From the sequence record NC_028822.1: a DNA stretch of 40,829 nt, one strand, 5' to 3'. The stretch comes from Escherichia phage P483. A model generated the notes under the pieces. The model made no database searches. It saw only the letters and a program-made list of their open reading frames with translations, and had not been told where the DNA came from. Of this stretch, positions 2,978 through 40,829 are shown piece after piece; position 1 is the stretch's first letter; each line of letters opens with the position of its first letter. Both the position numbers and the translations under genes were made by a program.

Positions 2978-5900
2978 TTACTTCTTGTCAGCCTTAATGT
3001 GAACACCGTTGGCCTCATAGAACTTAATGAGCATCTGTTGAGAGATTGGGTCGTTAGGAATCATCTCTCGGTGAGCATTCATTAAGCCAGTCATCATCTC
3101 ACGCTCGGTCGGTTTGTTAGGAGCCGTAAGGACACCATAAGCATTTCGACCAGTAGCTAGAGCAGCACCAGCGAAGCCAAGAGCAGGAACCTGTTCACCA
3201 ATAGCGCCCATAATGGAATCACCCATGTCACGAGAAGTCACCGCCTTATTGCGTTCACGCTTGTCATCACCTTTCGGTAGAATCGTAGAGCGAACCATAA
3301 GACCTTGGTCGTAACCAGCAGCACCCATAGCGAAGTTAGCGATACTCAGAGGCGACCCAAGGTGTGAACTTCGGGAGGCCGCTGCGTAGGCAATCATCTT
3401 CGGGTCGAGAGCTTTCTTCAAGTAATCCTTCTGTTGCTCTTTAGGAAGACCAGCAGCTTTCAAGTGAGCCTGTGCCACGTAGTAGGAACCGGCAAGACCA
3501 CCAGAGATAGCATAGGTCAGAGCCATGTCCATAGCGCGATGGTTCTTAAAGGCTTCGTTGCCAGAGCGGATAAACTTAGAGTTCATCGACTTGATGACAA
3601 ACGATTTAAACTGAAGGACTAACTTAGCGGTAGCACCAAACGCATGGGAATCCTGTAAGGAAACCTTATGAGGTCTGAGCATCGTTTCATCAGCAACCTT
3701 ATCAGCTAAACGCCATAAGTCCATAGCACGAGGGTCATTAGCCAGAGCCTTCTTATCCTTGAAGGTGAACTTACCATCTTCACCACGAGTCACGTTCTCC
3801 CGGATGAGAGACTGAATGCCTTCCCACTGTTCCTTAGAGATACTCGCCGACTTCAGCATGTCACCTTTAATCCACTTGTTGGCACCCTTACCAGTGATAG
3901 CATGAGTTACCACATCGCCCATAACACCCTGACGGGCCATGTCCAGAAGGTAGTTTGACGTACCATTGAGGAACTTGGTTAGAGGTGAGCGAGCAGCCAG
4001 TTCTTGAGTTGTGTGCTTAATGGTCCCAACAACCTTTGCTGCAACATCAGGTGTATCAGTTGACTCACGGAGTCGCTGAATGATGTCTTGACGAGTCGGT
4101 CGGATTAACTGGTCGAACTCTTTACCGAACACCATAGAGTGGAGTTCTTTGAGTTCCTTACCGGAGACTGGCTTGTTGCGGAACGCTAAGTCACGCAGTG
4201 CCGGAATGCCATGAAGCATCGCACGGATATTACCCTTCGCCAACATACCGGAGATTTCAGTTAGGTTCTGCAAGCCCATGTATGCGTTCTTCGTAAAGAA
4301 GGACATATCGGACAGAGCACGAACCATAGTGTCACCTACAGTATCCTGATTACGTCGAGCACGACCAGTGAGAATCTTAACGGTATCCTTAAGTGCTTCC
4401 ACTTCACCTTTCATTGTGCCTTTACCTTCAGACTTCTTATCAAGAGCCATGATAGCGTCCTTGAGTTCAGCAGTAGTCTTGCCTGTACCTCCCATGATAG
4501 CAATATCACCATCAACACGGCGGTCATATGCTGGCATCACATGCTTCATATCGAAGTCACGGAGGTCATTCACAGAGAACTGTTGTCCATTCGGTAGAGT
4601 GACTGGCATGTCAGAATCAAACAGGTTACGGGCTTCAAGGAATGAGTTGTTCTCAATCCCAACGAGACCCTCAATGTTATCGTCAATGACACTTGAAGAG
4701 TTGAACTCATCGGTCTTCGCAATACCATAAGCCTTGTCCATAGCGTACTTCTCAGCCATCTGACTAAGCATAGCCTCTTCGTCTACCTTTGGTTCCACCT
4801 TCTCGTCTGTGCCAAACTTCTGGCGCTCTGAAGGTTTAGCCGGAGCAGCTTGTGCACCTTTGGCAGCAGAGGCGGCTTCTTCAGCTTCGGCGGTGGCTCT
4901 GGTGATTCTGTCTTGGACCTTAGTAGCCTGTCCTTTCATGTATTCGAGACGCTCTGTGTTAACACGGACGTGAGACTTCTGGGTCTCAATCATCTGCTTC
5001 CGGCTCTCAATCTTAACAGGAATGGTTTTGCTATTAGGTTTAGCAGCTAGTTTTTCTTCCAACTCCTTCAGCTTAGCCTCATGCGAAGCCAGTCTGTCCT
5101 TGGAGTTCTGGAGTTTCCTTTCACGGTCCGCAACTCGCTTCTCAGCGTTGGTCAGGACGTCTTTTAGTTCTGCTACCTTATCACTTGCCTGTGTAGCTGC
5201 ATCGTCCAGTTTCATCTGGTAACTGGCTGTGTCGACAGACTCTTGGCTTCTGAGGAAGTTCTCAGTGTCAGCCGCAAGTTTGGCATCAGCTTCAGCTTTG
5301 GAGAAAACGTCACTGTTAACCTGTTTAAGGTATTCATCAACACGGGCCTTAACTTCAGGACGTGAATGATAGGATGTCATCCAGCTTGCAGCAATCGCTT
5401 CCTGTAAACCATCAGAACCCCCAAGAGCCTGTGAGTACAACTGCTTGGCTTCCCGTGAGTACACATGAGGAACGTAAGTCCCTTTGTGACGACTGTTAGG
5501 GAAGATAGAGTTGGCCTTGTTACCGAACATCGACGGGTTCTCCATCATCTCACGCTTGAGGTCAAAGTGTTCCTTCATGATGTCCATCACCTTACGTTCT
5601 GCCTTTGTCAAGTTGGCCTGAAGTTCAGGTCTCTCGATAGCCACAGCAGCACGACGATAGATTTCTTGACGGGCACCTTGAGCACCACTCTTGAACATAC
5701 CCACAGACCACTCAGGGTCAGCCATCGCTTCCTTCATTGCACCATAGAGGTCATTGTAGGTTCGCTGGTTGTTACTGTGTAGGCGCTCTTTGATGTCTGA
5801 GGCGGTAGCCCCAAACTTACCATGTGAGCCAGACTCCATACCTGTAGGTGAGCGCACTAAGTCCTTAGCTAGTCCACGGATTTCAGCGTGTTCAGAACGT

Positions 5901-7450
5901 AGAGTTCTCAAGCCGATTTCACTCAGGCCACGCATAGGCAATCCCCAAGCAGCACGTTCAGGGTCTACCTCGGCAAACTCTCTGGCTGTCATAGGGTTCG
6001 CTAGGTTAGTATCACTAATAATGGAACCATCACGCAGCACTACAGCACCCGGTTCAGTTTCCAGTGGTGCATACTCAACGCCGTTGTGCTGTGAGAACAC
6101 TCGGTCTTCACTAGGAGGCATACGGCTTGCGTCATAACCACCAGTGTTACGTGCAGTCTCACGAGCCTCAAAGCGCATCTGTGCAGCAGCAAAGGGGTTC
6201 TCAATCTGTTCAGCACCAGACTTACGGAGACCAGCGGCAACACCATCTGCCACAGCAGTCAGTCCACCAGCCAGTAACATCCCAGCAAGGGCAGCTTCAG
6301 CATAGTGTGCATTGCCACCTGCAACCGATGTACGCAGACCTTCAGAGGCAACGTTAAGTGCACCAGCTTGAGCACCCACCATCAATGCCTTGTTCACCAG
6401 TTTGAATCCCTTGGCTGTACTCCCTGCGAGTGGGACGTAGGTCAACGGGTCCACACCAGCACCAATCAGGCCAGCAGACAGCTTGGCACCAAGTCCAGCA
6501 TCAGCAGCCTTAGCATCAGCCTCGAAGTTCTCGTTAGCCATTTTGATTAGCTCGTCAAGGTTCTCAGCGGAACCACCGAGTACAACGTTCATGTACGCAG
6601 GGTTCTTTACTTCAGTCCGAATCTTCTCCAGTTCTTCAGGCGACCATATGTGGCTATTAAACCGTGTCGGTTGAAGTACATCAGTGAGCACATCAAAACC
6701 ATTGTCACGCTTACCAGCACGGAAGGCAACACCCAAGGTTGAGTTGGAGAGTTCTGCTTCAGCAGCACTACCGAATCCGAAGAAGGTTGAACGCTCATTG
6801 GCTTCGTCAAGAGTTGTTCCTTTTGCTTCCCAATAGTCTTTACCGAACGGCTGATTGGGAGCGGCCTGTTCTTTACCTTGAAAGGACATTGAGTGAGACT
6901 CAGGGAGTTCTGTAGTTACCTTTCCTTTCTTCCCGATACCACTCATAGCAGCATCGAACGGAATCCCTTTACCCTTTGGGGTGATACCACCGAAGGACTC
7001 AATGTCACCACTCTTAGGAGACTTAGCGACATCCAGAAGTGAGCGAAGATAGTTACGCCCTTCGTCACCGATACCAGCAAAGTTACCGGAGTCATAGGCT
7101 TCCAATTGAGGTTTACCAGTACGTCCCTCGCCTTGGTTGTACGCTAGTGCAGCTTTAAGTTCATCCCCATTGTATTTCTTAACGAGGTCTGCAAGGTAAC
7201 GAGCACCTGCATCGATTGACTTAGCCGGGTCGTTGAAGTCCTCATCAGACTGTAGGCCGTAAGCCTGACCAGTTGCCTTAGTGAACTGCATGACACCTCG
7301 TGGCCCTGTTGGTGATTGGGCCGTAGGTTTGAATCGGGACTCTACCCAACCGACCTTCCGAAGAAGGCCATAGGAGACTCCATGTGTGTCAGCAGCTTGT
7401 TGAAATAACGCATCATATTCATGCGGTTCGTTCGGGTTATACTTATCCAC
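2978..7450 (-). CDS. 16: Internal virion protein D (T7 gp16-like) with N-terminal lytic transglycosylase domain
   Basis: 1490 aa; GTG start with SD TAGGAGGT; N-terminus MDKYNPNEP...MQFTKAT and much of the body align with T7 gp16 as recalled; about 180 extra residues inserted. Confidence 0.9.
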   Translation of the reverse strand: MDKYNPNEPHEYDALFQQAADTHGVSYGLLRKVGWVESRFKPTAQSPTGPRGVMQFTKATGQAYGLQSDEDFNDPAKSIDAGARYLADLVKKYNGDELKAALAYNQGEGRTGKPQLEAYDSGNFAGIGDEGRNYLRSLLDVAKSPKSGDIESFGGITPKGKGIPFDAAMSGIGKKGKVTTELPESHSMSFQGKEQAAPNQPFGKDYWEAKGTTLDEANERSTFFGFGSAAEAELSNSTLGVAFRAGKRDNGFDVLTDVLQPTRFNSHIWSPEELEKIRTEVKNPAYMNVVLGGSAENLDELIKMANENFEADAKAADAGLGAKLSAGLIGAGVDPLTYVPLAGSTAKGFKLVNKALMVGAQAGALNVASEGLRTSVAGGNAHYAEAALAGMLLAGGLTAVADGVAAGLRKSGAEQIENPFAAAQMRFEARETARNTGGYDASRMPPSEDRVFSQHNGVEYAPLETEPGAVVLRDGSIISDTNLANPMTAREFAEVDPERAAWGLPMRGLSEIGLRTLRSEHAEIRGLAKDLVRSPTGMESGSHGKFGATASDIKERLHSNNQRTYNDLYGAMKEAMADPEWSVGMFKSGAQGARQEIYRRAAVAIERPELQANLTKAERKVMDIMKEHFDLKREMMENPSMFGNKANSIFPNSRHKGTYVPHVYSREAKQLYSQALGGSDGLQEAIAASWMTSYHSRPEVKARVDEYLKQVNSDVFSKAEADAKLAADTENFLRSQESVDTASYQMKLDDAATQASDKVAELKDVLTNAEKRVADRERKLQNSKDRLASHEAKLKELEEKLAAKPNSKTIPVKIESRKQMIETQKSHVRVNTERLEYMKGQATKVQDRITRATAEAEEAASAAKGAQAAPAKPSERQKFGTDEKVEPKVDEEAMLSQMAEKYAMDKAYGIAKTDEFNSSSVIDDNIEGLVGIENNSFLEARNLFDSDMPVTLPNGQQFSVNDLRDFDMKHVMPAYDRRVDGDIAIMGGTGKTTAELKDAIMALDKKSEGKGTMKGEVEALKDTVKILTGRARRNQDTVGDTMVRALSDMSFFTKNAYMGLQNLTEISGMLAKGNIRAMLHGIPALRDLAFRNKPVSGKELKELHSMVFGKEFDQLIRPTRQDIIQRLRESTDTPDVAAKVVGTIKHTTQELAARSPLTKFLNGTSNYLLDMARQGVMGDVVTHAITGKGANKWIKGDMLKSASISKEQWEGIQSLIRENVTRGEDGKFTFKDKKALANDPRAMDLWRLADKVADETMLRPHKVSLQDSHAFGATAKLVLQFKSFVIKSMNSKFIRSGNEAFKNHRAMDMALTYAISGGLAGSYYVAQAHLKAAGLPKEQQKDYLKKALDPKMIAYAAASRSSHLGSPLSIANFAMGAAGYDQGLMVRSTILPKGDDKRERNKAVTSRDMGDSIMGAIGEQVPALGFAGAALATGRNAYGVLTAPNKPTEREMMTGLMNAHREMIPNDPISQQMLIKFYEANGVHIKADKK

Positions 7451-10817: not shown

Positions 10818-10840
10818 CTTCCCAATAGTGAGTCGTATTG
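10818..10840 (-). promoter_or_regulatory. Phage RNAP promoter phi13
   Basis: Minus strand reads CAATACGACTCACTATTGGGAAG. Confidence 0.85.
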
Positions 10841-10868: not shown

Positions 10869-13256
10869 TTAGATACCAGAAGTACGACGTAGGTAGTTAC
10901 CTTCCCAGCCACATCCAATCACGTTTAGTGGTGTAGTGTGGTCAGAGATAATACGGACCTCATTCAACTGTGCGTTGCCAGCAACCGGGAAGCGGAACTG
11001 ACCTGTACCAACGTTAAGTCCACCAGAGCGTAACGCATTGGAACCCAAGCGAGCACCCGCCATGTCATAGCTGAACAGTCGAGAGGTGTTCTCCACTTCC
11101 ACAACGAATGCGCCAGAGTCCTCATAGTTAACCCATGCGCGTCGAAGCTGCAAGCGACCAATGTCCTCGGTAGCCGTAGACCCATCGTCAGCGGTCTTCT
11201 TGATGAGGAACTTAGAGAACACGTAGCGGAAGTCAATTGCCATCCCAATGTAGATGGTCTCACCTTCTCGGTTCCCATTCATAGACAGGACAGGAACACC
11301 ATCAGGCCACCCACCACGCGGCTGGTCGAACCACGAGACTAAACCATCAGAGGCCACGATGTAGAACTTACCCAACCAATACTTCATCCCGTAGATGTCC
11401 ACAGGCTTGATAGTGGTCGTGTAGGTATCATCATTATAGGAACCTGTAGGAATCACGTACTTCATCTTGTTGTCAATGTACAGACGATAAGGCTCATCAG
11501 GGAAGTCAATGCTGTTCTTCGTAAAGTGAGCGCGGCACATCCAAGTGTGGGACTGGTTGCGCAGCACAAGGTACATGGTGGACCCGATAGAGTCACAAGC
11601 CAGAACCGTTACGTTACTTCCAAGTTCCCAATGTGACCACGACTGTTGAGCAATCTCTTCGTTGAGGTACAGGAATTTGTACAGGAAGATTTTACTCGGA
11701 GCGTTCGCAGAGAGCACGGAGATGAAGTTCTCAGTACCGGAGCCACGAATGGAGAACACACCGTTCGGAATGTAACTTGGAACGTGAGCACTCATATCCT
11801 CAGCAGACTTCACGGAGCTAACATCCTGTACCGCATAGTAACGGTTCAGTGACGTGTAGGAAGCACGAGGTGACGCAAAATAAACACCACGTCCAACACC
11901 AAAAGGTCTCGCTCGGTCTGACACATCGAACTCGGTCGTGAGGTTCAACTCTACGGACTTCGGAGAGAGGATACCTTGAGCAGACAACACGAACTGTGCT
12001 TGGTCTGACCATAGGAGTAACTCTTCGGAGAACGGTACAGCGTACTTCAGGATAGAGATACGGTTGTGGGACACTGCTACGTCAATCGGGTCATCGTCGG
12101 ATAGGTTAGCCACGGACGCAGGGAACAATGAGAAATACTTGGATGTACGGGACATCACAATGTTCTCACCAGCAAGGAACCCTAAGCGGTTACGGAAGAA
12201 GAACACATCGTTAATCGTCTGGTCAACAATAGACGGAGTAGGGTTAGTATCCATGTCGCCACAGGTACGCTGTGACCACGGAAGGGCTTGCATCTGGAAT
12301 GAACCATCAGACTGACGCACAAGAGCATGAGGCATCGTGTCACCATTGAGTCCCTTCTGTACTCCCCAACCAGCCACCTCTTTCCACACCTTCTTCACGT
12401 TGTCGTACTGAACGTAGAACTGGTCGGAAGTCTTAGAGGTGTCACCTACAATCTTCACTGTGTATCCATTAGGAGCCTCAAGGGGCAACTTACTGAATGA
12501 CTGGCTGGTGTGCATCACTGCGTTCATCAACTGGTTGGCGTAGCCATCTTCAGTGGACAGTGAGTTAATCTGGCTGTTACCCGGAGCAATCACATGGATG
12601 AACCCCGGCCCTTCGTCGAACTTCCAGTCCTTAAAGGAACCGTGAGCACGAGCAAGGCCAGCTAGTTTCTTAACGAGCCACTGTGCGTCTGTCTCCTGTA
12701 CAGCCTGTTCAGCACCATCACCGACACCGTTGTGAATCTTGTATGAGATACGTACACCGTTGATAGTGAATGCCAGTGTACGCCCATACTGACCACCACG
12801 GACGTTAATCAAACAGTCTCCATTCTCCTTTAGGCTATACAGAGGGGCAGTGTCAGCGCGTACCACCATGTTACGGTTTACGATAAACGTATAGTCAGCC
12901 ACAGTGACCATCCTTAAGTCATCTCGTGGATTCCCTACCTTCACGTAGGACAAGTCACCCTTCACAGTATACTCTTTACCATTGAGGTCGAACACTCGAA
13001 CACCCTGTCCGGTAAACACTACGTAATACTGTTCGACACTATCTCGGTTGATGAGGTGAACGAGAGGTTTGGCACCAAGGGCATTCTGGTCTCCAATGGT
13101 CTTAGTGAAGACAAAAGGTGGACGCTTCTGAAGACCCTCAGTCTCAGACGACCAAGCGTTAATCTGTTCGGCACCCTGTTCGGGGAACCTTAAGATGTCT
13201 GGCTGTTGACTGATACCGCCTTTCAGGTTCTTGACGGATTGTGAAATAAGAGCCAT
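10869..13256 (-). CDS. 12: Tail tubular protein B (T7 gp12-like)
   Basis: Start moved to internal ATG at 13256 (MALISQSVKNLKGGISQQPDILR...), matching the T7 gp12 N-terminus as recalled; 795 aa. Confidence 0.9.
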   Translation of the reverse strand: MALISQSVKNLKGGISQQPDILRFPEQGAEQINAWSSETEGLQKRPPFVFTKTIGDQNALGAKPLVHLINRDSVEQYYVVFTGQGVRVFDLNGKEYTVKGDLSYVKVGNPRDDLRMVTVADYTFIVNRNMVVRADTAPLYSLKENGDCLINVRGGQYGRTLAFTINGVRISYKIHNGVGDGAEQAVQETDAQWLVKKLAGLARAHGSFKDWKFDEGPGFIHVIAPGNSQINSLSTEDGYANQLMNAVMHTSQSFSKLPLEAPNGYTVKIVGDTSKTSDQFYVQYDNVKKVWKEVAGWGVQKGLNGDTMPHALVRQSDGSFQMQALPWSQRTCGDMDTNPTPSIVDQTINDVFFFRNRLGFLAGENIVMSRTSKYFSLFPASVANLSDDDPIDVAVSHNRISILKYAVPFSEELLLWSDQAQFVLSAQGILSPKSVELNLTTEFDVSDRARPFGVGRGVYFASPRASYTSLNRYYAVQDVSSVKSAEDMSAHVPSYIPNGVFSIRGSGTENFISVLSANAPSKIFLYKFLYLNEEIAQQSWSHWELGSNVTVLACDSIGSTMYLVLRNQSHTWMCRAHFTKNSIDFPDEPYRLYIDNKMKYVIPTGSYNDDTYTTTIKPVDIYGMKYWLGKFYIVASDGLVSWFDQPRGGWPDGVPVLSMNGNREGETIYIGMAIDFRYVFSKFLIKKTADDGSTATEDIGRLQLRRAWVNYEDSGAFVVEVENTSRLFSYDMAGARLGSNALRSGGLNVGTGQFRFPVAGNAQLNEVRIISDHTTPLNVIGCGWEGNYLRRTSGI

Positions 13257-13895: not shown

Positions 13896-13936
13896 AAAAA
13901 ACCCCTCAAGCACCCGCGAAGGCACCCAAGGGGTTT
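13896..13936 (-). terminator. Tphi-like intrinsic terminator downstream of capsid gene
   Basis: Minus-strand RNA CCCCUUGGGUGCC-UUCGC-GGGUGCUUGAGGGG followed by UUUUUU; G-U rich stem as in T7 Tphi. Confidence 0.8.
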
Positions 13937-15258: not shown

Positions 15259-15281
15259 TCTCCCAATAGTGAGTCGTATTA
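15259..15281 (-). promoter_or_regulatory. Phage RNAP promoter phi10
   Basis: Minus strand reads TAATACGACTCACTATTGGGAGA. Confidence 0.9.
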
Positions 15282-16249: not shown

Positions 16250-16272
16250 TCTCCCATTAGTGAGTCGTATTA
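16250..16272 (-). promoter_or_regulatory. Phage RNAP promoter phi9
   Basis: Minus strand reads TAATACGACTCACTAATGGGAGA. Confidence 0.85.
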
Positions 16273-18859: not shown

Positions 18860-18882
18860 CCTCTCAATAGTGAGTCGTATTG
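18860..18882 (-). promoter_or_regulatory. Phage RNAP promoter phi6.5
   Basis: Minus strand reads CAATACGACTCACTATTGAGAGG. Confidence 0.8.
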
Positions 18883-23189: not shown

Positions 23190-23212
23190 TCTCCCATTAG
23201 TGAGTTGAATAG
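23190..23212 (-). promoter_or_regulatory. Phage RNAP promoter phi4.7 (divergent class II type)
   Basis: Minus strand reads CTATTCAACTCACTAATGGGAGA; A instead of G at -11. Confidence 0.65.
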
Positions 23213-23801: not shown

Positions 23802-23845
23802 TGTGATTCTCCTTAAGCGGATTGATAAGTGGGAACAGAGTGTCT

Positions 23846-23868
23846 GTCCCCTTAGTGAGTTGTATAGA
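23846..23868 (-). promoter_or_regulatory. Phage RNAP promoter phi4.3 (divergent class II type)
   Basis: Minus strand reads TCTATACAACTCACTAAGGGGAC. Confidence 0.6.
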
Positions 23869-25732: not shown

Positions 25733-25755
25733 TCCTCCCATAGTGAGTTCTATTA
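25733..25755 (-). promoter_or_regulatory. Phage RNAP promoter upstream of gene 4 (T7 phi3.8 position)
   Basis: Minus strand reads TAATAGAACTCACTATGGGAGGA. Confidence 0.7.
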
Positions 25756-27358: not shown

Positions 27359-27407
27359 GATGTTTCTCCTTTGAGGTTTCTGAAAGTTAAAAGTGGGAAA
27401 CGATGTG

Positions 27408-27430
27408 TCTCCCAATAGTGAGTCCTATTA
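27408..27430 (-). promoter_or_regulatory. Phage RNAP promoter phi2.5
   Basis: Minus strand reads TAATAGGACTCACTATTGGGAGA. Confidence 0.85.
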
Positions 27431-28433: not shown

Positions 28434-28456
28434 TCCTCCATAGGTGAGTCGTATTA
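28434..28456 (-). promoter_or_regulatory. Phage RNAP promoter phi1.6
   Basis: Minus strand reads TAATACGACTCACCTATGGAGGA. Confidence 0.75.
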
Positions 28457-28541: not shown

Positions 28542-28564
28542 TTCCTCCATAGTGAGTCGTATAG
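28542..28564 (-). promoter_or_regulatory. Phage RNAP promoter phi1.5
   Basis: Minus strand reads CTATACGACTCACTATGGAGGAA. Confidence 0.75.
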
Positions 28565-28598
28565 AAACGCAAAAAGGCCAGCCCACGAAGGACTGACC
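28565..28598 (-). terminator. TE-like intrinsic terminator for host RNAP at the end of the early operon
   Basis: Minus-strand RNA GGUCAGUCC-UUCGU-GGGCUGGCC (9-bp stem, two G-U) followed by UUUUUGCGUUU. Confidence 0.7.
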
Positions 28599-28604
28599 GT
28601 TTGT

Positions 28605-29093
28605 TTATGATAGTGCTTCATCACGGGCGGCTATCGCCTCGTCAAGCGTTTTGTGGTAGGAAACATGCCTAGCACCATTCCTCCTGATACAGACAGTATA
28701 TAGTTCCCTGTCATTCCTCTTAGAGATGTGCTTCAATCCCAGCTTGTTGGTCGTGAATGTACCTTTGTTCTGGTTGTTAACAGCACAAGTAACCACCCTA
28801 AGATTCTCTATGAGGTTGTTACCTTTGTTTCGGTCTATGTGGTCAACTTGTAGTCCTTCAGGTATTGCACCATTTATTAGTTCCCAAATTACCCGATGGA
28901 CTCGTAGGTGATGTGCCACTCCGTTGACCCTCACACATAATACCCAATAGCCAGCCTTATTCAAGTATCCTACTGGCTTACCGTTGGGCTTGGAGAGGCC
29001 ACTAGGAGCCTCCCTGTTTACTTTAAATCTTTTCTTTAGGATTGTCCTCAGTTCCTCGGAAGCAGGAGAATGAGGGATGCCGCAATGACCCAT
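28605..29093 (-). CDS. HNH homing endonuclease with AP2-like DNA-binding domain
   Basis: 162 aa; HNH motif region VDHIDRNKGNNLIENLRVVTCAVNNQNKG and AP2-like YTVCIRRNGARHVSYHKTLDEAIAARDEA; start overlaps the last 70 nt of ligase. Confidence 0.75.
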   Translation of the reverse strand: MGHCGIPHSPASEELRTILKKRFKVNREAPSGLSKPNGKPVGYLNKAGYWVLCVRVNGVAHHLRVHRVIWELINGAIPEGLQVDHIDRNKGNNLIENLRVVTCAVNNQNKGTFTTNKLGLKHISKRNDRELYTVCIRRNGARHVSYHKTLDEAIAARDEALS

Positions 29094-30196: not shown

Positions 30197-30219
30197 TCTC
30201 GCAATAGTGAGTCGTATTA
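30197..30219 (-). promoter_or_regulatory. Phage RNAP promoter phi1.3
   Basis: Minus strand reads TAATACGACTCACTATTGCGAGA. Confidence 0.8.
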
Positions 30220-30720: not shown

Positions 30721-30743
30721 TTTCCCATTAGTGAGTCGTATTG
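30721..30743 (-). promoter_or_regulatory. Phage RNAP promoter phi1.1
   Basis: Minus strand reads CAATACGACTCACTAATGGGAAA. Confidence 0.8.
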
Positions 30744-31344: not shown

Positions 31345-31367
31345 TCTCCCAATAGTGAGTCGTATTA
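31345..31367 (-). promoter_or_regulatory. Phage RNAP promoter immediately downstream of gene 1 (T7 phi1.1A equivalent)
   Basis: Minus strand reads TAATACGACTCACTATTGGGAGA; the transcript starts with a 9-bp 5' stem-loop GGGAGACCC-UU-GGGUUUCCC. Confidence 0.9.
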
Positions 31368-31375
31368 GATTACCA

Positions 31376-34027
31376 TCAGGCAAAAGCGAAGTCTGACTTG
31401 AGGATTTCTTGGAGGTCGAGAGCACCTTTAGCTGGCATCTCAGGCATCTTGTCAAGCTGTGACTCGTGCAACTGCTCGGCAAATTGCTCATAGAAGTCTG
31501 CGAGTACATCGTTTTCTTCGTAAGTGTTGACCATCGTTTCACGCACTGCTTTAAACAGGTTGCCAGCATCAGCAGGGATAGTACCAAATGAGTCGTGAAT
31601 AAGTGCAAAGGATTCCACACCGTATACCTCATTGGAGCGCACTACAGTCATTCGCAGGTGGCTACCGTCCATTGAGTGAACAAAGTTAGGTGCGATGCCT
31701 GACTCCTGCTTACGTGCGTCAATTCCGCTATCCTTGTTGGTGTTCACGGTAGGCTGCAAACGAATCTGCCCCAAGAACATCAGGTTCAAACGAGTCTGTA
31801 CTGGCTTCTTGTATTCCTGCCAGACCGGGAAGCCATCAGGAGTTACCCAATGTACCGCGCAGCGCTTGCGGAGAACCTCTTTAGTCTTCTTGTCCTTGAC
31901 TTCAGCAGCTAGGAGTTTAGCCGCAGACTTCAGCCAGTTCATTGCTTCAACCGCAGCGACCACAGTCACTGTTACCGATTCCCAAATCAGTTTAGCCATA
32001 TAGCCAGCCGCTTGGTTCGGTTGAGTGAACATCAAGCCTTTACCATCGTCGATAGCTGGCTGAATGGTGTCCTCTAGCACTTGGTCACGGAAGCCGTACT
32101 CCTTGGACCCGTAAGCCAACGTCATGACCGAACGCTTAGTGACCTTGCGAGTCACACCGTAGGCCAGCCACTGACCAGCTAACTCTTTCGTTCCCAGCTT
32201 GAGCTTCTCAGTGATTTCACCAGTGTCCTTGTTTGTCACTGTTTCCACTTCGTTATCAGTGCCGTTGATTACCGCTTCGCGGAGCATCTCGTTCACACGT
32301 TCGGCAACGATGCGGTAGATGTCCTGTACTTCCTTGCTTGGCAGCAGGTTAACAGCGCGTCCACCTACTTCATCACGAAGCATTGCAGAGAAGTGTTGAA
32401 TACCAGAGCAAGAGCCATCGAACGCCAGCGGCAGAGAGCAGTTGTAGTTCATACCGTGGTGTTGCACACCTGCATACTCAAAGCAGAATGCGAGGAAGCA
32501 GAACGGAGAGTCTTGTTCAGCCCACCAAGTGTTAGCAATAGGGTCAGCCGCAACGCTCATGATGTTCTCGTGGTTGTCCTCAATGAACTTGATGCGTTCT
32601 GCAAAGTCCACCTTGTCCACACCAGCAGTGTTTGCACCGTGAATCTTCAGCCAGTAGTATCCATCAACACCGATTGGTTTACCTTTAGCGAGCGTTAACA
32701 GACCCTTGGTCATGTCGTTGCCTTGCGGGTTAAACATCGGTACAGCGTAGACACGACCGCGCCAGTCCATGTTCATAGGGAACCAGATAGCTTTAAACTG
32801 TGCGAACTTGTTGGCTTGCCCTAACATGAACTCCATGCTCATACGACGAGACACGCGAGCCTTCTCCTTGCGGTAGATTGCGGAGGCCGCTTTCTTCCAT
32901 GCTTTGAGTGCCGCTTCGTTCGTGTCGATGTCTTCAGGTTTAACCGGAAGTTCACCACGTTCGAGAGCAGGTACATCTTCAACCGGGCAATGCTTCCAGT
33001 TCACAATCTCGTTGACCACTGCCAGAACCTTCTTGTTAATCTTCCAAGGAGTATTCTGTGCGATGTTAACCGCCTTGTAAACTTCAGGCATATGCACGTC
33101 GTTGTAACGCTCAAGTCCCTTCTTGGAACCAGTGCGAACCAGAGAGAGAGGCTTGCGACCAGCAGCCCAATAGCCACCACCAACCGGAGAAGTCCAAGGC
33201 TTCGGAGGGACCACACAAGGTTGATACATTGGAGCGATTGCAGCCAGTGCACCAGCACGTTTAGATAACAGGTCAACGTATTGTTCGGTTAACTGGATGT
33301 ACTCACCATCCTTCTCAACGTTACCAGCAAACGGTCGGTGTAACTCAACGAGACCAGTAGACCCAATGAGCAGTTCCAACATACGTACACCAACGTGGAT
33401 TGCTTCTTCAGGTGTCCATGTGGTCCACTTGGTTTGCAGTTGACCAGCATCTAACATCTTGCCTTCTACTGCTTGCATGAATGCCTTCTTGTAGACGATA
33501 CCTACGCGCTTGTTTAGTGCTTCCTGTACGTGATTCTTAAAGTGCTTCGCTTCTTCGTCACGAATGCGACCGAAACGCAGTTCATCTTCAATGCTGCGAC
33601 CAATCTTAGTTGCGACCGCTTGCAGGTTGGTGTATTCCTCTTTGGTTAAACAAGCCAGTGTGACCTTCAGTGTGATGAAAGCAGCCGCTTCAGGTGCAAC
33701 CTTCTGTACCAGATTATAGGCCACTGGACGCTTACCGCGCTTAGATTCCACTTCAGTGAACCAAGTGTTCCACGCCTCGATAAACTTCGGTGCGAGGGAT
33801 GACAGGAGAGGTTTAGCCACTGCGTTGTCACCGAACTCACCCGCTTTGATTTGACGCTCCATTGCCTTAAGGAAACGCTTCTCGCCCTCAGTGTGCGCTT
33901 CGTGTTCTAACTCAAGCTGAGTAGCAGCAAGCTGTGCGCCGTAATGGTCAGCCAGAATGTTGTACGGCTGGATTGCGTTAGCGATGTCAGAGAAGTCATT
34001 CTTTGGTGCATTGATTACGTTAGTCAT
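31376..34027 (-). CDS. 1: DNA-directed RNA polymerase, single subunit (T7 gp1-like)
   Basis: 883 aa, identical in length to T7 RNAP; long stretches match as recalled, including the specificity-loop region RKRCAVHWVTPDGFPVWQEYKKP and QPTVNTNKDSGIDARKQESGIAPNFVHS. Confidence 0.97.
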   Translation of the reverse strand: MTNVINAPKNDFSDIANAIQPYNILADHYGAQLAATQLELEHEAHTEGEKRFLKAMERQIKAGEFGDNAVAKPLLSSLAPKFIEAWNTWFTEVESKRGKRPVAYNLVQKVAPEAAAFITLKVTLACLTKEEYTNLQAVATKIGRSIEDELRFGRIRDEEAKHFKNHVQEALNKRVGIVYKKAFMQAVEGKMLDAGQLQTKWTTWTPEEAIHVGVRMLELLIGSTGLVELHRPFAGNVEKDGEYIQLTEQYVDLLSKRAGALAAIAPMYQPCVVPPKPWTSPVGGGYWAAGRKPLSLVRTGSKKGLERYNDVHMPEVYKAVNIAQNTPWKINKKVLAVVNEIVNWKHCPVEDVPALERGELPVKPEDIDTNEAALKAWKKAASAIYRKEKARVSRRMSMEFMLGQANKFAQFKAIWFPMNMDWRGRVYAVPMFNPQGNDMTKGLLTLAKGKPIGVDGYYWLKIHGANTAGVDKVDFAERIKFIEDNHENIMSVAADPIANTWWAEQDSPFCFLAFCFEYAGVQHHGMNYNCSLPLAFDGSCSGIQHFSAMLRDEVGGRAVNLLPSKEVQDIYRIVAERVNEMLREAVINGTDNEVETVTNKDTGEITEKLKLGTKELAGQWLAYGVTRKVTKRSVMTLAYGSKEYGFRDQVLEDTIQPAIDDGKGLMFTQPNQAAGYMAKLIWESVTVTVVAAVEAMNWLKSAAKLLAAEVKDKKTKEVLRKRCAVHWVTPDGFPVWQEYKKPVQTRLNLMFLGQIRLQPTVNTNKDSGIDARKQESGIAPNFVHSMDGSHLRMTVVRSNEVYGVESFALIHDSFGTIPADAGNLFKAVRETMVNTYEENDVLADFYEQFAEQLHESQLDKMPEMPAKGALDLQEILKSDFAFA

Positions 34028-36961: not shown

Positions 36962-36979
36962 TCTCTCTCTCTCTCTCTC
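36962..36979 (-). repeat. (TC)9 / (GA)9 dinucleotide microsatellite at the phiOL transcription start
   Basis: tctctctctctctctctc read directly; the transcript would begin GAGAGAGAGAGAGAGAGA. Confidence 0.9.
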
Positions 36980-36996
36980 AATAGTGAGTCATATTA
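36974..36996 (-). promoter_or_regulatory. Phage RNAP promoter phiOL
   Basis: Minus strand reads TAATATGACTCACTATTGAGAGA. Confidence 0.75.
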
Positions 36997-37210: not shown

Positions 37211-37412
37211 AGATACTCAATGGTCACTTACAGATAGGGACACAGAGACACTAAGTTATCCACAGAGTTACCAACAGTCTCACCTAAAGTTATCCACACA
37301 GCCTCTAACCTAGAGTTATCCACAGAGTTATCCATAGGTTATCCACAAGTTATCCACAAGTTATCTACAGGGTTACCCACAGGGGGGAAACCACTATGTA
37401 TGAACTATGAGA
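37190..37412 (-). repeat. Predicted terminal direct repeat with the left physical genome end at about 37412 (boundaries approximate)
   Basis: Minus strand from 37412 reads TCTCATAGTTCATACATAGTGG...CCCCCC, like the T3/T7 left end (TCTCA...) as recalled; GTGTCTCTGTGTCCCTATCTGT (37225-37250) matches the end of the T7 terminal repeat. Confidence 0.4.
37246..37381 (+). repeat. Array of eight DnaA-box-like 9-mers (five exact TTATCCACA) in the predicted terminal-repeat region
   Basis: TTATCCACA at 37246, 37290, 37316, 37339, 37350; TTATCCATA at 37328; TTATCTACA at 37361; TTACCCACA at 37373; all same orientation. Confidence 0.8.
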
Positions 37413-37981: not shown

Positions 37982-38004
37982 CTTCCCAATAGTGAGTCGT
38001 ATTA
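37982..38004 (-). promoter_or_regulatory. Phage RNAP promoter phiOR
   Basis: Minus strand reads TAATACGACTCACTATTGGGAAG, downstream of the terminase gene. Confidence 0.85.
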
Positions 38005-40424: not shown

Positions 40425-40829
40425 TTACTTCTCCTTCTTAGCTTGCATTTCAGTTATTGTATTTTGGAGCGCCTTAATCCACGCATCCCCTCTTTGAGTT
40501 ACTCCGATAAGACGCTTACTAAACTCTTCGTCAAGTTCGGCTCGACCATCAACGAGGCATCCACCATTAGCTTGGAGTTCTCGTGTGGTGGCTGATAGTT
40601 TGACGCGCAAGCGCTTACCATCGTTACGCAAATCATTAATGACCCTATCAGTGCTGCCCTCCAGCGCCGCAAGGTCTTCTTGGTATTGTCGTGAGATTTC
40701 GTTGATAGCAGCTTGTTTATCCTCAGTCGCCTTAACTTTCTTAACGTACTCATTGTGCACCTCCTGTTCCCATTTAGTGTTAGCTTTGTCATAGCCGTGG
40801 TTATACGCAAGGGTAACACCCAAGGCAAA
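40425..40829 (-). CDS. 18.5: i-spanin Rz (T7 gp18.5-like), 3' part; the 5' end lies beyond the window end (equivalent to 1..265)
   Basis: Continuous with the copy at the window start; resembles T7 gp18.5 as recalled. Confidence 0.8.
   Translation of the reverse strand, partial: FALGVTLAYNHGYDKANTKWEQEVHNEYVKKVKATEDKQAAINEISRQYQEDLAALEGSTDRVINDLRNDGKRLRVKLSATTRELQANGGCLVDGRAELDEEFSKRLIGVTQRGDAWIKALQNTITEMQAKKEK
40499..40753 (-). CDS. 18.7: o-spanin Rz1 (T7 gp18.7-like), embedded in Rz in the +1 frame
   Basis: ATG 40753 with SD GGAGGTG; MSTLRKLRRLRINK...LIGSLMICVTMVSACAS (lipoprotein signal and Cys) ...SLMVEPNLT resembles T7 gp18.7 as recalled. Confidence 0.8.
   Translation of the reverse strand: MSTLRKLRRLRINKLLSTKSHDNTKKTLRRWRAALIGSLMICVTMVSACASNYQPPHENSKLMVDASLMVEPNLTKSLVSVLSE
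40604..40829. repeat. 226-bp exact duplication of window positions 1-226 (circular-permutation overlap, not a biological repeat)
   Basis: Direct comparison of window start and end. Confidence 0.95.

Follow-up and report, generated by a model that had tools for sequence, protein, structure and literature searches.

Sixteen predicted T7-type promoters in a Berlinvirus genome and the base at their position -1

The closest described counterparts of the promoters analysed here lie in phage BA14 (EU734171 / NC_011040). Its record carries 16 'regulatory promoter' features, namely OL, 1.05, 1.1, 1.3, 1.5, 1.6, 2.5, a 'phi' before gene 4, 4.3, 4.7, 6.5, 9, 10, 13, 17 and OR, which share one consensus with T at position -1. 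The same consensus and layout recur in a Berlin-like Yersinia phage, Kvp1, PP74 and P1338, and the consensus is also found in the Helsettvirus fPS-64. Promoter logos of Kvp1 and Berlin were published in 2008 and their similarity was remarked upon (PMC2579914), and promoters are annotated in the GenBank records of BA14, Kvp1, FE44, Yepe2 and fPS-64. For PP74 ('R6'), a 2024 screen predicted TAATACGACTCACTATTGGGAA as the promoter and showed in vitro transcription from TAATACGACTCACTATTGGGAA by the PP74 polymerase. This enzyme outdid T7 polymerase in the coupled assay of that screen, which put forward a Berlinvirus enzyme as an alternative to T7 that gives high yields (PMC11475235). PP74, like Kvp1 and Berlin, is another member of the genus, and its gene 1 is about 85% identical at the DNA level to the one described below.

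The more distant reference is T7 (NC_001604). Here we show how the genome of Escherichia phage P483 compares with both systems. The window, by which we mean the whole stretch of DNA analysed (40,829 bases), shares with T7 the 23-bp promoter architecture, the consensus from -17 to -2, the GGGAGA start, the contact residues of the polymerase specificity loop and most of the promoter positions. It also differs from T7. Of the 17 T7 promoters, 16 have A at -1, whereas none of the 16 sites in the window does. T7 carries a phi1.1A/phi1.1B tandem, 75 nt apart, together with phi4c, and the window has neither. The six class III promoters of T7 are identical 23-mers, while those of the window differ among themselves at -17, -2 and +2 to +6. 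Finally, T7 phi2.5 is the only T7 promoter with CACTATT and therefore T at -1, but its +1 is A (TATT-AGGGAA; here and below a hyphen separates -1 from +1), whereas all 16 sites here start with G. The promoter set is an ordinary feature of a known genus, already annotated in relatives and, in the case of PP74, partly tested in the 2024 screen.

Genome layout and promoter map

The window is a complete, circularly permuted T7-like phage genome belonging to Berlinvirus (the BA14/Berlin/Kvp1/PP74 group of the Studiervirinae), with its genes on the minus strand. In a megablast comparison with GenBank phages, it is 92-95% identical at the DNA level, over nearly its full length, to BA14 (about 93%), 285P, FE44, PYPS50, BSP161, Shigella phage A7 and others, and when the BA14 proteins are mapped onto it, the complete order of T7-type genes, 0.3 to 19.5, appears on its minus strand. 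The ends of the window are an exact 226-nt duplication (1-226 and 40604-40829). We considered this as the terminal repeat of the phage and rejected it: the duplication falls within genes 18/18.5 and is an overlap left by circularisation of the assembly. The unique genome measures about 40,603 bp, in which the terminal repeat is collapsed. The sequence homologous to the terminal repeat of BA14 is found instead between phiOR and phiOL, the two outermost promoters.

A sequence-only reading of this genome had listed sixteen promoters for a T7-type phage polymerase and proposed a weight-matrix scan of both strands as a check. The count stands, but the consensus printed there, TAATACGACTCACTAT(T/A)T, contains one base too many. 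That 18-mer returned 11 matches with at most three mismatches, against 0.01 expected in shuffled sequence, and missed the others because of its additional T. A search with the corrected 23-mer, together with a 23-bp weight matrix (-17 to +6) built from the sites themselves and scanned over both strands, gave 16 sites, all on the minus strand, which is the coding strand. The sites score 27.4-40.2 bits (19.6-39.8 when each is left out of its own matrix), and all other positions on either strand reach at most 8 bits, with no seventeenth site among them. This gap between at least 27 bits and less than 8 bits lies far beyond chance and indicates that the set is complete. The consensus reads TAATACGACTCACTA(T/A)T-GGGAGA, of which TAATACGACTCACTATT-GGGAGA is the form shared by the clade, and only phi10 and phi1.05 match it in full. 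Positions -15, -14, -10 to -5 (ACTCAC) and the G at +1 are invariant in 16/16. All of them are found at, or shortly beyond, the stop codon that ends the preceding gene, with 8-150 nt left before the next gene. A repeated element of about 23 bp whose core is of the CACTA type and whose start is rich in G, within the range of about 10-20 copies usual for genomes of this kind, a cognate polymerase gene, co-orientation with the genes and gene-junction positions syntenic with T7, T3 and BA14 together identify these as promoters of the T7 group (Studiervirinae). The consensus, never with A at -1, is of the Berlinvirus type; with 0/16 sites carrying that A, and with neither the phi1.1A/phi1.1B tandem nor phi4c, the set is distinct from that of T7 proper (Teseptimavirus).

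The 16 BA14 features map one-to-one onto these sites, often with identical flanks. The 23-mers of phi1.05, phi1.1, phi1.6, phi4.7, phi9, phi10, phi13 and phiOR are identical in the two phages, while others differ by single bases: at phi1.3 and phi2.5, TATT in the window corresponds to TAAT in BA14, and at phi4.3 the -1 base is G in the window but T in BA14.

All coordinates below are on the minus strand. Since the genome is circularly permuted and lies on that strand, phiOR (37982-38004; TAATACGACTCACTATT-GGGAAG, 37.2 bits, identical to BA14 phiOR) comes before phiOL (36974-36996; TAATATGACTCACTATT-GAGAGA, 34.6 bits) in genome order. The former is located after gene 19 and before 19.5; the latter, the counterpart of BA14 phiOL, marks the left end upstream of the early region. 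Between the two, in or beside the predicted terminal repeat, eight copies of TGTGGATAA are packed into 126 bp (37256-37381), five of them perfect and three with one mismatch, and every perfect copy in the window falls here. Read on the opposite strand, this element is the E. coli DnaA-box consensus, TTATCCACA. The genomes of BA14 and P1338 contain zero perfect copies; a homologous stretch is present in Shigella phage A7 (92% identical) and in phages nasanit and SEqdws-315. The cluster could be the usual short-repeat array of T7-like termini that matches DnaA boxes by chance, or it could reflect real DnaA binding.

Downstream of the polymerase gene, phi1.05 (31345-31367) is a perfect consensus (40.2 bits) 9 nt past the gene 1 stop and corresponds to phi1.05 of both BA14 and T3. 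It is followed by phi1.1 (30721-30743; CAATACGACTCACTAAT-GGGAAA), which overlaps the 3' end of gene 1.05. The names 1.1A and 1.1B given to these two promoters in the sequence-only reading are wrong, as the sites are separated by 624 nt and by gene 1.05, and T3 and BA14 share this phi1.05 - gene 1.05 - phi1.1 layout with the window. Ahead of the ligase gene lies phi1.3 (30197-30219; TAATACGACTCACTATT-GCGAGA). Next come phi1.5 (28542-28564; CTATACGACTCACTATG-GAGGAA, G at -1, 31.3 bits), directly after TE, and phi1.6 (28434-28456; TAATACGACTCACCTAT-GGAGGA), the most divergent site of all (27.4 bits), whose CCTAT form is also present in BA14, Kvp1 and P1338. The TE-like intrinsic terminator itself (28576-28598), just upstream of phi1.5, occupies the position of TE in BA14. 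Between this terminator and the ligase gene 1.3, the window holds an ORF of 162 aa (28605-29093) encoding a homing-endonuclease domain of the HNH_3 type (Pfam E = 7e-18), at a site where BA14 has no gene.

In the class II region, phi2.5 (27408-27430) reads TAATAGGACTCACTATT-GGGAGA. Its predicted transcript starts at +1 with a hairpin, GGGAGACACATCGTTTCCC (27394-27414), flagged by the terminator scan, which resembles the stem-loop at the 5' end of the T7 phi10 leader. The three sites that follow have A at -11, namely phi3.8, or phi4A (25733-25755; TAATAGAACTCACTATG-GGAGGA, G at -1, 29.2 bits), phi4.3 (23845-23867; CTATACAACTCACTAAG-GGGACA, G at -1, 29.5 bits) and phi4.7 (23190-23212; CTATTCAACTCACTAAT-GGGAGA, 30.9 bits). 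Like this last site, T7 phi4.7 begins CTATTC.

The remaining promoters are close to consensus: phi6.5 (18860-18882; CAATACGACTCACTATT-GAGAGG), phi9 (16250-16272; TAATACGACTCACTAAT-GGGAGA), phi10 (15259-15281), phi13 (10818-10840; CAATACGACTCACTATT-GGGAAG) and phi17 (2954-2976; CAATACGACTCACTATT-GGGGAA). The phi10 interval reads TAATACGACTCACTATTGGGAGA on the minus strand, a perfect consensus (40.2 bits) in which +1 is assigned to the G at 15264 and -1 to the T at 15265. A Tphi-like terminator hairpin (13903-13922) lies between genes 10 and 11, where a terminator is annotated at the same position in BA14.

Two structural genes flanking phi17 differ from their BA14 counterparts. The internal virion protein gp16 (2978-7450), with an SLT transglycosylase domain at its N-terminus, has 1490 aa against 1315 aa in BA14, where residues 1-711 are covered by the single tblastn HSP requested per query; PP74 gp16 is similarly long to that of the window. 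The tail fibre gp17 (880-2904) has 674 aa against 655 aa in BA14. Its residues 1-154 form the Pfam T7 tail-fibre N-terminal domain and the first 331 BA14 residues align with 94% identity, while the C-terminal receptor-binding part is unlike that of BA14, as expected for host-range modules.

The gene 1 polymerase

Gene 1 (31376-34027) encodes a single-subunit RNA polymerase of 883 aa, which we propose as the reader of the 16 promoters. It is 76% identical to T7 RNA polymerase, 97.7% to BA14 gp1 and 99% to that of phage P1338. Its specificity loop (T7 residues 739-770) matches that of T7 at 28 of 32 positions, including R746, N748, R756 and Q758. The AT-rich recognition loop also keeps R96, K98 and R99, the intercalating hairpin keeps V237, and W422 is conserved as well. 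In T7, N748 reads -10/-11, R756 reads -9 and Q758 reads -8, and -5 marks where the binding region meets the initiation region (PMC5937735). The T7-type specificity loop thus fits the T7-type CGACTCAC block of the promoters, which supports the link between this loop and the -12 to -5 block that the sequence-only reading had drawn.

Together with the synteny, these observations make it very likely that the 16 sites are the full promoter set for the phage's own gene 1 polymerase, with start sites placed by T7 analogy. Transcription from the assigned +1 of each site by the phage polymerase is a prediction for this genome. By the same analogy, the AT-rich recognition loop (R96, K98) would read -17 to -13, the specificity loop (R746, N748, R756, Q758) would read -11 to -7 in the major groove, opening of the duplex from about -4 would fall to the intercalating hairpin (V237), and GTP would be the initiating nucleotide, at the first G of GGGAGA. 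The strong, near-consensus promoters phi1.05, phi6.5, phi9, phi10, phi13, phi17 and phiOR would drive the replication origin and the late structural genes, and the divergent class II sites at 1.5, 1.6, 3.8, 4.3 and 4.7 would drive the DNA-metabolism genes more weakly. We infer both these relative strengths and the role of -1 discussed below. The map makes the transcription programme of the phage readable by analogy with T7, T3 and BA14, and has little import beyond correct annotation. The one point of wider use is that A is strictly avoided at -1.

The base at position -1

The sequence-only reading had stated that -1 is T in every copy where T7 has A. In fact 13 of the 16 sites have T and three (phi1.5, phi3.8 and phi4.3) have G; the part of the claim that holds is that the A of T7 never occurs. 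The same pattern is found in the relatives: 14 T and 2 G in BA14, 13 T and 2 G in the Berlin-like Yersinia pestis phage, 12 T and 2 G in PP74, and only T or G in Kvp1 and P1338. All 12 annotated promoters of the Helsettvirus fPS-64 (LT961846) read ACTCACTATT-G, that is, CACTATT before the initiating G. This phage belongs to another genus with other gene content, differs by having A at -11 in 6 of its 12 promoters, and encodes a polymerase only 83% identical, so that T at -1 reaches beyond Berlinvirus. Over the seven genomes, A at -1 occurs in 0 of 102 sites, a count in which PP74, fPS-64, P1338 and Kvp1 were scanned by sequence pattern and sites departing from the invariant core or from G at +1 could be missed.

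The adjacent position behaves differently, as -2 swaps between T and A among orthologous promoters, for example in phi1.3 and phi2.5 between the window and BA14. Beyond annotated genomes, IMG/VR contigs containing ATACGACTCACTATTGGGA are almost all Berlinvirus-sized genomes. Among the Berlinvirus-sized contigs that carry TATT-GGGA, none contains the T7-type ATACGACTCACTATAGGGA (TATA-GGGA), while three T7-type contigs have one TATT-GGGA site beside five or six TATA sites. This distribution suggests that A is selected against in this clade and that T7-type genomes are more permissive.

How far this reflects the polymerase itself can be weighed from several sides. The strongest version would make T at -1 a true specificity determinant: the enzyme would need a non-A base, preferably T, and would reject T7 promoters, giving orthogonality in at least one direction. 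We regard this as possible but rather doubtful. The absence of A from all 102 sites while -2 flips freely, and the absence of TATA-GGGA from the Berlinvirus-sized contigs, are what it predicts. It also draws on the 2024 screen, whose text speaks of a 'single nucleotide change' with respect to a promoter that it leaves unnamed (PMC11475235). We take that promoter to be the T7 promoter, differing only at -1, because it is the only identifiable promoter one base away; the statement comes from a coupled reticulocyte assay, which together with the unnamed promoter weakens it as an argument. Against strict specificity, three natural promoters of the window have G at -1, which means that T is not strictly required, and T7's own phi2.5 has T at this position. 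T7 polymerase, moreover, tolerates the reverse change: in a barcoded library of T7 promoters, it gave on TAATACGACTCACTATTGG 73 (RNA/DNA reads) versus 142-188 for the wild type, or about 40-50% activity, a value from a single barcode (PMC5937735, S2 File).

The polymerases offer candidate positions for such a preference. A search for residues that co-vary with -1 returned 68 positions that are invariant in the clade with T at -1 and absent from T7, T3 and K11. They include 232, 238, 239 and 243 in the intercalating hairpin, 133/134 beside Q135, and H300G, H772R and Q786M, all of which would be compatible with altered specificity. These columns are however too many and too confounded with phylogeny to pinpoint a residue, and we keep them as a candidate list only.

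A narrower proposal is that the base at -1, and not the specificity-loop contacts, bars Berlinvirus and Helsettvirus polymerases from T7 promoters, with T7 polymerase using Berlinvirus promoters at about 40%. We consider this unlikely. If true, it would amount to a one-way orthogonality switch outside the canonical -12 to -8 specificity region; changes to the intercalating hairpin or close to H784 might account for it. Discrimination at -1 would also provide a near-T7 pair of polymerase and promoter, differing by one promoter base, for orthogonal expression and in vitro transcription.

At the other end, T at -1 may be a neutral inherited quirk, fixed as TATT in the common ancestor of Berlinvirus and Helsettvirus and kept by descent or homogenisation with no preference on the part of the polymerase. 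Such neutrality would agree with the location of -1 outside the duplex-binding region, with the G tolerated in three sites, and with the behaviour of T7 polymerase, for which -1 was retained in 84.8% of high-activity promoter variants versus at least 98.8% for -9 to -7 (PMC5937735). It is harder to reconcile with sixteen independent sites per genome that show no drift to A, across genera whose polymerases are only 83% identical, while -2 alternates between T and A even when the window is compared with BA14, for example at phi1.3 and phi2.5. That A is missing from -1 despite the variation at -2 argues for purifying selection against A rather than inheritance alone, and we hold the neutral explanation to be improbable.

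The reading we prefer for the promoters as a whole is that of a full cognate set, in which T in place of A at -1 is a lineage-wide consensus of the clade, located in the melted initiation region, and would leave duplex-binding specificity unchanged.

Divergent class II promoters

In the sequence-only reading, phi4.3 and phi4.7 formed a special divergent pair, held to be weaker or differently regulated. The two do share an upstream half, CTAT(A/T)CAACTCACTAA, with A at -11, and their leave-one-out scores are low (24.4 and 26.3 bits). They are not alone in this, as phi1.6 (19.6), phi3.8 (26.0) and phi1.5 (29.1) also diverge, while the other sites score 30.7-39.8 bits. A at -11 occurs in phi3.8 as well, and in T7 phiOL and T7 phi3.8. 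The CTATT half is present in T7 phi4.7, which starts CTATTCGACTCAC, and is therefore an inherited trait of that particular promoter. In T7, -11 is read by N748 and was retained in 93% of active variants (PMC5937735). That phi4.3 and phi4.7 would be weaker is a reasonable inference from T7 biology; we found no support for their being differently regulated. The sequence-only reading had also failed to find an equivalent of T7 phi4c, and we agree: the weight-matrix scan of both strands is empty within gene 4, and the codons orthologous to T7 phi4c read CAGGACAAAGAACTCAAGATGCAA.

In the Berlin-like Yersinia phage AKS2022HT54F_phi, the phi4.7 orthologue (12467-12489) reads CTATTCAACTAACTAAT-GGAGTA, with the otherwise invariant C at -7 changed to A (core ACTAAC). 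In that lineage the promoter is probably losing or has lost its function, and its mutated core indicates that individual class II sites can decay.

It is quite unlikely that some of the sixteen sites in the window, notably phi1.6, phi4.3 and phi3.8, are likewise decayed relics and not working promoters: these three have the lowest leave-one-out scores and depart from the consensus at -4 to -1 and at -11/-12, the Berlin-like phi4.7 orthologue has lost its core and Kvp1 is wholly without phi4.3, but all three retain the invariant ACTCAC and the G at +1, the odd CACCTAT of phi1.6 is kept in BA14, Kvp1 and P1338, and the A at -11 of phi3.8 is also kept in T7 phi3.8. Within the full cognate set that we favour, transcription at phi1.6 and at phi1.5, phi3.8 and phi4.3, which have G at -1, could begin one base off the assumed +1, or these sites could be very weak.
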